A stretch of DNA of 64,000 bases from a virus, in the IMG/VR virus record IMGVR_UViG_3300009499_000001, positions 6,892-70,891 of that record. The stretch is one strand, 5' to 3'. The position numbers and the translations under genes are program-made. The number at the start of each line of letters is the position of its first letter. The first letter of the stretch is position 1. Below, piece by piece: positions 37,601 through 40,600 of this stretch. Under the pieces are notes generated by a model that saw nothing but the letters and a program-made list of their open reading frames with translations, made no database searches and was not told the origin of the DNA.

Positions 37601-40600
37601 CCTCTCCGACCCAGTCGAAGACTTGGTCAACGCGCTTGCGAGGTTGCTGCCCTTTGGGCGCCTTCTTTTCCGTGCCCCGAAGCGTGGAGTACGTCATAAA
37701 CAGAATCCCACGCTTCGCCCGGAGCGGCGCGTAGCTCTTCGCCTCGAAGATGAGCTTGGGATCTTGCCCCAAAGCTACCCATTCCTCCCGGATTCGATCC
37801 AGGAGCCGTTTGTTCTGAGTGATCCAAACGACCTTCCGTCGGCCGCGCCGCCAGTTGTCGAGGATGACGGCGCAAATCTCGCGTGTCTTGCCGACGCCAG
37901 TGCCATCCCCGAACATGAAACCTCGACGGACGGGCCTCTCGCCCTCGGGCGCTGGCAGGAATTTCTCGTGGGCCTGGCCAGCGTAGACCGCGGCTTCAAC
38001 CTGGATTTCCGACAAGGCACCGCTCTTGATGATGTCCTGGGGAAGGTCGGGCCGGTAGGTCGGCACGGGTGGCATGACCGTCGCCATCGCCGCGGACTCG
38101 ACGATGGAGCCTGGGTGTGGTTGGGCCCCTGGAATCTTCAAGCGCGCGGGCCGGTACGGCTCGAAGATTTCCTGGGTCAGTTCGGCCTTGCGCTCCCGAG
38201 CGCGCTCCCCCGCCTCTATAGCGATTCCTGGTGCAGGAGCGGGCACACCTTCTGGAAGTTCTCGAACAGGTTCTCCAACAACACCTGGGCGAGCGCCCGG
38301 GCGCCCAGCTTCTCCTTCTGTTGGGCGAGCCGCTGCGCCCCTTCCGCCGGGTCGTCCTTCGGGTCCGGCAGGAGGAGCCGTTGGGCGTCCTCCGGCTCTG
38401 CGCCCACCAGGTCGTCCACCCGGTCTTGGAGCCACCCCTGGAACTGCTCCCAGTGGCCTACCAACTGCACCTGCTCCAGGAGCCACCGGACGAGCTGGAC
38501 GCTGTGCAGGTAGTCCGGGTCGGGCTCCTGGCCTTGCTTCAGGAGCAATTCCCGGCACCGCTGGTTCAGGGGATTGCTGTTCAGTTGGACCCGTTCGCTC
38601 ATTTCGGACTCCACTCATATTATCTATGAATTCCGCCAGATTGTCAACCCTTGCGGAGACCACAGCGGCGGTCGTCGGCCCCGTCTTGTCGATCACCAGG
38701 ACGCGCGTGGGGAAGGCCGTGCCGTACTTGCGGTAGATGCCCCGCTCCACAGCGACCACCGCCCGGATGCTGTACTCCTTGCCGATCCGCTTCGCCCAGC
38801 GCGTGAAGGTCCTGGTGTCCTGTCCACGCATCGGGGCCCCGACGATCGCCACAACCCGGCCACCGTCTTGCAGCAGATTCAGGGCGGCCTCGACGTGCTT
38901 GAGATCGGTCCCGATCATCCGTTTGTCACCCATGCGCTGGCCGGCCCGGGAGAACGGCGGGTTCATCAGGATCACGGTGGGCCGAGGCAGGCCCTGTTCG
39001 GCCAGTCGGGCGGGCAGGATGTTGTGTATCTGCTCGGCGTCTTCAGTGAAGACCGCGTCGAGCCCTAGTTGTCCAAGTAGGCCCGCCCGCTGGCCGCTGA
39101 TCTCGTTGGCGTAGACCTGCGCGCCACCCGCGTTCTGTGCGTGGATGGCAATGCTGCCGGTTCCGGCGCTGGGCTCCAGGACCACGTCGTTCGGGCCGAT
39201 GTTCGCCAGCCAGGTCACCGCGTAGGCGTAGTGCGGCGGTGTCGAGAACTGTTGGAGCAGGTCCTTCTCGCCGCTGCGGTTCCGCTGGGCGGGGATCCGG
39301 TCCAGTTGGCCTTCCAGGCTGTCGGCCTCGATCTTGGCCTGCTCGGCAGCGACCCTTGGATCCGTCTTCCGCTGGAGGTACTGATTGATACCCAATTCCA
39401 GGCCGTCGTAGGCCTCCGAGGGACCGTATGTCCCCTCCGCCCGGGTTCCGCCCCAGACTTCGTCGGCCATCGAGAAGAAGGTGGCTTGGTCGATGACATC
39501 GCCAGCGACAAGCCGCTCGATGACACGCCGGGCTAGTTTGATCTGGGGGTTGGCCTCTGTGGCGGCCGGGGCTGGTGCTTCGGCCGGTGCGACACCCATC
39601 GCCTGCCGGGCAATCGCCTCCAGGTCTTCGTTCGCGAAGCCGTCGACTGCCTGAGGGGTCGTCAAGGCAGTGCGCATATCCAGGGGGACCTGATACCGAG
39701 CGGCCGAGAAGATCGACTTGTAGTCGTCGGCGGTGAGCTTCGCGGCGATGTCGGGCATCTCTGCGGCGAGCTGCTGGACGAACTTGACGAAGGACTTGAT
39801 CCCGGCCTTGATGTAGAGGCCAGCGATTCGGGTCGCAATGACCATCCCCTCGGCGTCCAGACCCATCGGAGTCCGGTTGCGGAGAATCCCCCCGAGCTGC
39901 TTCTTCAGCCGTTCGAGTTCGGCCTGATCTTCGGCGGAGAGGTTCTGTGTGATGCTGGGCTTTTTGGCTTTCGCGGGTTCGGTGGGCTTGGGGGACACCT
40001 CGGCCGGGGCTTCTGCCGGACGGGCGGCTGGCGTTACAACTTCCAGCATTTGCTCGATGAGAGCAGCATCGCCCACAACGTGATGCGCCCTGCCTACCTT
40101 GCCGGGGATCGGATGCTCGTCGGCTCGAATGAACTTCACGCTTCCGCCGGGCATGGTCAGCTCGAAGTCGCCCATACCGAGATGCGCCACCTTGCTGTCG
40201 GGTATGGCCTTCTCGACAGCGTTCAAGAAGTTGGTGTCGACGTAAACGCGACCGTCATCCTCGCGGACGTAGTGCGGGGCCGTGTCAATGGGCGCGGGTG
40301 CCTCCGCTTCGGCGGGCTTCGCCAGGGCTGCATCGGCCCAATGTTGGCCCCGGTAATCCTTGAGCACCGCAGGCGCCACTTCCTTGCCTTCCTCGACCGC
40401 GCGCCGTACCAGGATTTCGTGATCCCGAAGACGGGCGGCGTACGCTTCCGCAGCCTCGACGCCCAGGGACTGTTCCTTCTGCCCCACCTTTCGGGGCCGC
40501 TTTGTCGTGATCCGATAGCGCCCGAACGGGCCAATGCCAGCCGCGTTGTATGCCGGCGGCTCTGTGCTGCTGATCTGCACCTTGCCGCGGAGGGGACCTG

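Follow-up and report, generated by a model that had tools for sequence, protein, structure and literature searches.

What is encoded by the bases lying between the methylase and the helicase of a giant phage protein, and in which of two overlapping frames does selection act on it? The question is raised by a locus on the minus strand of a 64,000-nucleotide (nt) stretch of viral DNA (hereafter the window, meaning the whole stretch that was analyzed), which corresponds to positions 6,892 to 70,891 of IMG/VR record IMGVR_UViG_3300009499_000001, a virus record of 70,891 bases with direct terminal repeats. Here a gene for a polyvalent protein of 4252 amino acids (aa; 31617..44375, minus strand) runs through a methylase-like domain and a strawberry-notch (Sno)-type helicase, and between the two it reads as a spacer rich in Pro, Gly, Ala, and Arg, while the +1 frame of the same bases contains an open reading frame (ORF) of 128 codons. 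An earlier examination of the letters alone (the sequence-only reading) had proposed that the nested frame is the one under selection at the protein level, and that the giant protein simply reads through it as a spacer. Our comparative analysis supports this core proposal, and we put at roughly 0.85 the probability that 38602-38216 (minus strand) is a real second gene, with its existence, its dual coding, and its mode of expression taken jointly. To judge from the sequences compared here, the same hidden gene occupies the corresponding position in related phages, plasmids, and bacterial genomes, and has been missed by annotation.

In the window, direct reading places the nested gene (38216..38602, minus strand) in the +1 frame of the giant gene, starting with an ATG at 38602-38600 and ending with a TAG stop at 38218-38216, for a product of 128 aa. 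The giant-frame reading of these bases (codons 1924-2053; 38214..38603, minus strand) is stop-free and its sequence is not conserved. A GGAG Shine-Dalgarno (SD) sequence occupies 38612-38609 and is followed by six bases and then by the ATG. Coordinates, strand, frame, and start signals are therefore as the sequence-only reading had them, and so is the location of the ORF between the methylase-like segment and the Sno helicase, whose AAA_34 domain begins at residue 2086 of the giant protein. The same reading had also predicted a switch in G+C content at third codon positions (GC3) and a nested frame made mostly of G/C-ending codons, and both were found: when plotted per frame, giant-frame GC3 drops from ~0.9 to 0.25-0.35 exactly over the ORF, as giant-frame GC1 and GC2 climb to ~0.9 and ~0.8, respectively, and the nested ORF in its own frame has GC1/2/3 values of 0.78/0.30/0.90. 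The giant-frame GC3 of the linker, 0.308, is the lowest anywhere along the giant gene, where the minimum outside the linker is 0.577, and compares to a mean of 0.754 (standard deviation 0.037, minimum 0.638) in 2000 trials of synonymous resampling. Among the 13 ATG-started ORFs of at least 90 aa found in the alternative sense frames of the giant gene, the nested ORF alone shows a coding-like codon pattern. A second nested gene was considered at a mild dip in giant-frame GC3 in the N-terminal third of the gene (41735-41481, minus strand; minimum 0.46) and rejected; the +1 ORF that spans this dip (41587-41198, minus strand; 129 aa) has no coding-like codon pattern.

The arrangement was surveyed in 172 methylase-Sno-helicase loci, anchored by local tblastn on both flanks and consisting of the window, six IMG/VR records, five plasmid records picked from 605 matching ones, 80 metagenome loci, and 80 loci on genome contigs. 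Methylase and helicase are in one frame in all 172, and the linkers that join them fall into two classes. Class I (n = 88, 85 of which were assigned by motif pattern and three, L065, L066, and L093, added manually because of their long linker and nested ORF) includes the window, six viral loci, one conjugative plasmid of Thioflavicoccus, 63 metagenome loci, and 17 genome contigs assigned to Methylococcaceae, Burkholderiales, another gammaproteobacterium, Syntrophobacteraceae, Syntrophorhabdus, Syntrophales, several Firmicutes, and Opitutaceae. Named carriers include Methylomonas lenta R-45370, Methylomicrobium sp. Wu6, and Thioflavicoccus mobilis 8321. Class I linkers have a median length of 131 aa and a GC content of 0.36-0.69. 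Class II (n = 84), mostly from alphaproteobacterial chromosomes and plasmids, has a median linker of ~62 aa with no marked GC3 drop. In a tree of the flanks inferred with the linker omitted (FastTree, unrooted, 163 distinct rows) there is a single change of class, on a branch with Shimodaira-Hasegawa-like support of 97. In 86 of 88 class I loci the +1 frame has an open stretch of at least 100 codons, and in the remaining two this stretch measures 88 and 97 codons, so that stop codons in the nested frame of relatives, which the sequence-only reading had named as evidence that would count against it, were not encountered. This openness extends to AT-rich DNA: in the 38 of 85 pattern-assigned class I loci with a GC content below 0.5, the median open length is 132.5 codons for the +1 frame (minimum 112) and 22.5 for the +2 frame (maximum 52). 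Nested ORFs range from 87 to 152 aa, and a linker is longer than its nested ORF by a median of just 9.5 aa.

Two loci of this survey deserve a separate comment. In L005 (3001-5394) the linker reaches 253 aa, as the nested gene is followed by ~110 more giant-frame residues that are structured-looking and have a normal codon pattern, and that look like an inserted domain. L008 is the Thioflavicoccus mobilis plasmid pTHIMO01 (NC_019941.1, 15141-23234), for which the PLSDB gene table lists no coding sequence over the methylase-linker-helicase region, and lists separately the downstream coding sequences for a "strawberry notch C-terminal domain-containing protein" and a "zincin-like metallopeptidase". 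The big gene may have been treated as broken in that table, even though the sequence we read there is open.

That the nested frame encodes a protein is also seen when frames are compared. The nested-frame proteins of the window and of loci L001, L005, and L006 match at 26-57 bits, whereas the giant-frame translations of the same linkers give E-values above 0.6. When 12 diverse loci were compared in all six frames by blastp (66 pairs), scores of at least 30 bits were obtained for 35 pairs in the nested frame, for one pair in the giant frame, and for no more than two pairs in any of the remaining four. An antisense gene across the linker was rejected on the basis of this same comparison, in which the antisense frames yielded no conserved protein. 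Substitutions tell the same frame apart: in 18 disjoint pairs of loci, those within the linker are distributed over nested codon positions 1/2/3 as 380/267/582 (31/22/47%), which makes the giant third position the least variable one within the linker, whereas in the flanks of the same pairs the distribution over giant positions 1/2/3 is 382/208/1511, with 72% at the third. An analogue of the ratio of nonsynonymous to synonymous change (dN/dS), for which single-base differences in the 12 gap-free pairs of the 18 were classed by their effect in both frames, amounts to 0.32 in the nested frame, against 1.00 in the giant one. The comparison of dN/dS in the two frames had been suggested along with the original proposal, and together with the frame-specific similarity and the phase of the substitutions it bears out the view that protein-level selection acts on the nested frame and that the giant protein reads it as a spacer.

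The giant frame, in turn, is not free to close. None of the 172 linkers has a giant-frame stop, and the 39 class I loci with a GC content below 0.5 contribute 6737 codons to this count. If synonymous codons of the nested gene are resampled, a median of 5.5 such stops would arise (8.7 at low GC), and the median share of resamples in which the giant frame survives is 0% (5.3% for the window). Because the giant frame never acquires a stop even though its amino-acid sequence varies, the stretch is truly dual-coding. With both frames open, purifying selection on the embedded frame, and conserved start signals of its own, the locus shows, at the level of sequence, the marks of a same-strand +1 dual-coding gene. 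Purifying selection on the nested frame maintains an acidic, compact, all-helical protein of ~115-150 aa, and the giant frame, free in amino-acid sequence but held open, serves only as a flexible tether between methylase and helicase. Since the nested codons are rich in Leu, Glu, and Gln, the Pro/Gly/Ala/Arg make-up of this tether would be largely a by-product.

The nested start signals are embedded in a recognizable motif of the giant protein. In the window, the giant-frame residues G-V-R-N-E-R, encoded by GGA GTC CGA AAT GAG CGA (38595..38612, minus strand), carry both the nested SD and the nested ATG. The ATG is made of the last two bases of the codon for the third residue of the motif [IV]-[RK]-[N/D/H]-[D/E/A/G]-R and of the G that opens the next codon, and it is found at this same position in 82 of 86 class I loci. 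The codon for the third residue is AAT in 68 loci, GAT in 11, and CAT in four; it ends in T in 83 of 83 cases and in C in none, and the T is kept even where genome GC3 is near 0.9. One of the four loci lacking the ATG has CGT followed by G at the start position, which would give a GTG start. The SD core, formed by the E-G codons of the motif, is present 4-18 nt upstream of the start in 80 of 86 loci. As it encodes the nested SD and ATG, the motif L-E-G-[IV]-[RK]-[N/D/H]-[D/E/A/G]-R is likely conserved at least partly for nucleotide reasons, and the nested protein would be made by independent initiation at the ATG and SD that lie inside it.

As for transcription, a candidate sigma-70-like promoter, TTGACA-N17-GATAAT, matches the consensus at 11 of 12 positions just upstream of the nested gene (38619..38647, minus strand), where it is built from the giant codons GTT GAC AAT ... 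GAT AAT; it is the sole such site between 36000 and 41000. The same position and spacing are seen in L005 (TTGACA-17-TATAAT, 12/12) and L006 (TTGACA-17-TATACT, 11/12), which together with the window are mutual nearest relatives in the flank tree, and the giant residues under the -10 hexamer vary among the three (D-N, Y-N, and Y-T) while the hexamer remains -10-like. More generally, sites scoring at least 10/12 occur within 90 nt upstream of the nested start in 11 of 86 class I loci, compared to 36 of 4353 control windows, which is an enrichment. In the window and its two nearest relatives, the nested gene is hence probably transcribed from an internal sigma-70-type promoter, which would be composed of rare codons ending in A or T, within the final helix of the methylase. 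In the other loci, most of which have no upstream promoter site, the nested ORF is probably often translated from the mRNA of the giant gene itself. Another position with a candidate promoter, ~90 nt 5' of the nested ATG, was noticed in L022, L058, L077, and L094, and also in L068, L069, and L087. Its TTGACA is built from the I-D-K codons (ATT GAC AAR) of an invariant V-I-D-K methylase motif and is followed by 17 nt and GATAAT or AATACT; the window encodes these residues as ATC GAC AAG and does not have the hexamer.

The product of the nested gene in the window has an isoelectric point (pI) of 4.79 and a net charge of -8. The family as a whole is rich in Leu, Glu, Ala, and Gln and acidic, with a median pI of 4.56 and a median net charge of -8 (range -21 to +3). 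AlphaFold modeled the protein with a predicted local distance difference test score (pLDDT) of 74.7 when four sequences were supplied, and of 92.4, with a predicted template modeling score of 0.86, when 70 homologues were; the latter model is all-helical, a bundle of seven to eight helices. A profile built on four sequences and run against 1.84 billion proteins retrieved 489 cluster representatives at E ≤1e-3, and 92 at ≤1e-10, mostly 108-140 aa in length. Ten of these matches were looked up, and all were either nameless or listed as "hypothetical protein", most of them on contigs of 0.6-8 kb, a pattern that one would predict if gene callers recognized the small ORF solely on contigs in which the big one is truncated.

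By itself, the window protein had no match in Pfam or PHROGs, none by tblastn against phages and plasmids, none that was usable in the ESM Atlas, and none at E ≤0.01 among the 114 candidates that a word-indexed, near-length search of 5.8 billion proteins returned; a scan of viral contigs with peptide patterns from this protein also found nothing. Homology emerged only after relatives of the flanks were fetched and read in the +1 frame. The 70 homologues, in turn, hit no consistent family in Pfam, NCBIfam, or PHROGs. Foldseek gave a best E-value of 0.56 against the PDB for the first model, and of 0.62 against the PDB and 0.60 against viral models for the confident one, and the best E-value in a profile search of PDB sequences was 0.12.

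The family also appears to be bound to one genomic location. A family hidden Markov model (HMM) finds a single match in each of 85 of the 88 class I loci, an outcome that is partly by construction, as 70 of the class I sequences were used to build it, and has no match in the 84 class II loci, including their 1.5-kb flanks; remnants of a nested gene in class II were rejected on this result. In five of five carrier genomes the family occurs once, and at the locus. A profile of the nested protein that is independent of the flanks, applied to a sample of 400 genomes of one class, recovered the center, two new solid matches, and a marginal one (E 8e-4). Each of the two new solid matches is flanked by a methylase and a Sno helicase and reads in the +1 frame, and the marginal one is unrelated. 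Every solid match to the nested protein in these scans sits inside a methylase-Sno linker, where the sequence-only reading had suggested that homologues be looked for.

Several of our results weigh against the existence of a second gene expressed as proposed here, and need to be considered along with those above. Openness of the +1 frame in the window alone is not beyond chance, because this frame stays stop-free in 10811 of 20000 (54%) synonymous resamples of the giant linker. We acknowledge that the metagenome and genome-contig loci are the best 80 of each scan, near-duplicates included, and not a random sample, and that a filter at 90% identity leaves 71 of 82 nested ORFs as non-redundant. 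The rate of evolution of the nested protein is about double that of the domains that flank it, and in L002-L004, where a nested ORF (3641-3982 / 3641-3997) with the same start and SD, a length of 113-118 aa, and the same acidic helical make-up is found, its comparison with the core family gives at most 5 bits and no detectable similarity, and homology is supported by position only; either very fast evolution or replacement of the nested protein could account for this divergence. With regard to the promoter, ~0.9 sites scoring at least 9/12 are expected by chance between 36000 and 41000 based on shuffles, 75 of 86 loci have no site of at least 10/12, and the consensus used is that of sigma-70, which may not be the host's. 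A search of sequencing runs for the stretch returned one DNA run, probably from the source sample, and no RNA run. Lastly, the lack of a fold or family match in Pfam, PHROGs, NCBIfam, the PDB, viral models, and the ESM Atlas leaves us with no functional clue from similarity.

The sequence-only reading had gone on to suggest a dedicated inhibitor, chaperone, or packaging adaptor of the methylase and helicase, and while the selected nested frame and the spacer that it proposed stand, this part is conjectural, and its only support is the strict linkage. Because the gene is found only at the linker position, and only in the class I methylase-Sno clade, we favor, tentatively, an accessory role, in which the nested product would be a separately dosed subunit or regulator of a methylase-Sno module that protects incoming phage or plasmid DNA. 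Co-folding of the nested protein with the methylase and AAA_34 segments returned a score of 0.00 and no answer, and counts neither way. A more demanding version, which we regard as conceivable and rather doubtful, holds that the subunit or regulator is obligatory, arose once, and has been locked in the linker of its partner in phages, plasmids, and integrated elements across several phyla. If this were true, the protein might act as a safety catch by which the enzyme is held inactive in the cell that makes it, or might assist loading or targeting once a new cell is entered. The L-E-G-V-R-N-E-R motif and the spacer would then be imprints left by the codons and the ribosome-binding site of the nested gene, and would not have been selected for the sake of the giant protein.

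Alternatively, the nested product might be functionally independent of the giant protein, and be an early or anti-defense factor, for instance an acidic decoy of a host restriction or defense protein, that takes advantage of a tolerant linker. We consider this unlikely, if a serious contender. The acidity of the family (median pI 4.56, median net charge -8) would suit such a factor, as would evolution that is fast relative to the flanks, as in arms-race proteins; because of this twofold rate, in fact, a host-facing role fits at least as well as binding to a conserved surface. In the clade of the window, the putative internal promoter would permit a timing uncoupled from that of the giant gene. 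Against it, stand-alone anti-defense genes are usually found elsewhere as well, and here every solid match is inside a methylase-Sno linker. The charge is also modest compared to that of classical DNA mimics, and with a median of -8 the family showed no profile or fold match to the anti-restriction and DNA-mimic proteins ArdA, Ocr, and KlcA/ArdB, nor any similarity to anti-restriction families in Pfam, PHROGs, or NCBIfam. In its favor, the class of the host gene has been assigned to conflict with host defenses in the main text of Iyer, Burroughs, Anand, de Souza, and Aravind (2017; PMC5512222).

If the nested frame is translated, ribosomes could also enter it from the giant frame by a programmed +1 frameshift, which would generate a truncated isoform composed of the N-terminal part, the methylase, and the helical domain, without the helicase. 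Both frames are on the same strand, and the nested one opens exactly where the methylase domain ends, which would suit this reading. A frameshift product, however, needs neither an ATG nor an SD, and these are kept in 82 and 80 of 86 loci, respectively. Furthermore, a nested-frame TGA 12 nt 5' of the ATG in the window leaves room for a shift of only ~4 codons, relatives also have stops just upstream, and there is no slippery run at the junction in the window sequence, all of which makes a frameshift very improbable compared to independent initiation.

We give still less credit to the idea that conservation acts on the nucleic acid itself, as an RNA structure or regulatory DNA, or that the ORF is the untranslated relic of a gene swallowed when methylase and helicase were fused. 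Such a relic is made conceivable by the unfused methylase/helicase gene pairs reported in the main text of PMC5512222, which would allow for a three-gene ancestor, and the absence of an RNA run among the sequencing runs matching the stretch would agree with a silent locus. The substitutions, however, are those of a translated frame (position 3 > 1 > 2, with a dN/dS analogue of 0.32), conservation of start codon and SD is codon-specific, and co-variation in the nested alignment is strong enough to lift pLDDT from 74.7 to 92.4. The feature also spans GC contents of 36-69% with little nucleotide identity, and an RNA family was rejected, as Rfam gave no match at E ≤0.1. Finally, the frame could be open by chance, or owing to an assembly frameshift, in GC-rich DNA of low complexity. 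The 54% of synonymous resamples that keep the +1 frame of the window open, and the frequent long shadow ORFs of this GC-rich giant gene, would lend themselves to this reading. It is practically negligible, given an arrangement seen in 88 loci of independent assemblies, down to 36% GC, protein similarity significant only in the nested frame, and a nested ORF that is the sole coding-like one of 13 in the alternative frames.

A nested gene translated from its own start has counterparts in well-known systems. Rz1 of phage lambda is a short lipoprotein gene embedded in the +1 frame of Rz, with its own start, and the two products act together. Like it, the gene described here is a phage gene wholly contained in the +1 frame of a larger same-strand gene and endowed with its own start. 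The host of Rz1, however, is a gene of a two-component lysis system, and not one for a 4252-aa polyvalent enzyme with the nested gene in an interdomain spacer, and our nested product is predicted to be soluble and helical, with no relation to Rz1 in sequence or fold. In hepadnaviruses, the preS region of the surface gene overlaps the spacer of the polymerase, and the surface gene continues past that spacer. There too a tolerant spacer between enzymatic domains is read in another frame, and its sequence is largely dictated by the overlapping gene; these, however, are animal viruses with a tiny genome under strong size pressure, whereas no obvious size pressure acts on the 71-kb phage, the plasmids, and the integrated elements studied here, in which the nested gene fills its spacer almost exactly. 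Lastly, comS, which codes for 46 aa within srfAB of Bacillus subtilis, is restricted to a narrow lineage and transcribed from the promoter of the host operon. It shares with our case the location of a small out-of-frame gene inside a giant multidomain enzyme gene, but the nested family is longer (~115-150 aa), spans several phyla, and has in part its own candidate promoter. All three are best viewed as analogies of kind, and not as relatives.

For methylase-helicase polyvalent proteins, DarB of phage P1 is the usual functional comparison, and the sequence-only reading had spoken of DarB/sno-like genes. The label DarB-like holds as an analogy only, as P1 DarB was not recovered by tblastn with the junction: a 700-aa junction query against 50,697 phage records, among which the presence of P1 was not checked, returned one weak match to a Bacteroides phage (27% coverage, 29% identity). 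A precedent for the host gene is provided by the polyvalent proteins with a DNA methylase-helicase dyad, including Sno-type versions, described in the main text of PMC5512222. The window gene resembles these in having a Sno-type ATPase, its C-terminal domain, LPD38, and an adjoining adenine-methylase-like domain. The main text of the paper does not contain the word "overlap", and uses "nested" twice, both times for a hairpin fold. A search of full-text literature, supplementary files not being covered, found no description of the nested gene.

Same-strand embedded genes of more than 100 aa that are well supported and conserved across bacterial phyla are, to our knowledge, very few, and the comparative support gathered here is at the level usually required, as it includes two open frames, frame-specific selection, conserved starts, and a confident predicted fold. 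The locus adds an unannotated protein family, with 489 cluster representatives, to the conflict proteins of mobile elements, a class that is widespread. It also offers a clean genetic handle, as the nested start can be abolished while the giant protein stays unaltered. There are more general lessons as well, namely that an apparent protein motif and the composition of a "disordered linker" can both derive from a gene in another frame, and that annotation pipelines that forbid embedded genes will go on overlooking such cases.

The giant gene itself was defined from the ORF list and from its Pfam matches. The methylase-like domain (residues ~1691-1921; 38613..39305, minus strand), which contains an NPPF motif and ends just 5' of the nested start, scores below the curated cut-off of Pfam N6_Mtase (17.8 bits versus 20.4, E 0.0022) and matches the methyltransferase 3tma in the PDB with an E-value of 1.2e-5; its NPPF motif is unchanged across seven relatives. 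It is followed, past the linker, by the N-terminal P-loop domain of the Sno-type helicase (AAA_34, residues 2086-2401; 37173..38120, minus strand; E 6.5e-99), by the strawberry-notch C-terminal domain (Helicase_C_4, residues 2567-2826; 35898..36677, minus strand; E 2.7e-75), and by the polyvalent-protein-associated domain LPD38 (E 3.9e-32), and the presence of all three identifies the protein as a polyvalent one with a Sno-type superfamily 2 helicase. A homologue on an Agrobacterium plasmid is annotated as a bifunctional S-adenosylmethionine-dependent methyltransferase/helicase, and relatives of the giant gene were found in phages, on plasmids, and in integrated elements.

The lineage of the phage seems to be poorly sampled. 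When the region was compared to phage DNA by blastn, no cultured-phage record matched, and of ten neighboring proteins, encoded by large minus-strand ORFs between 7362 and 61364, two have matches in PHROGs (phrog_1499 and phrog_2045), both families without a known function. Four long ORFs also lie on the plus strand opposite the giant gene, at 33933-36161, 36654-38513, 40050-41627, and 41682-44513 (742, 619, 525, and 943 aa, respectively), and these are most likely shadow frames of the GC-rich giant gene.

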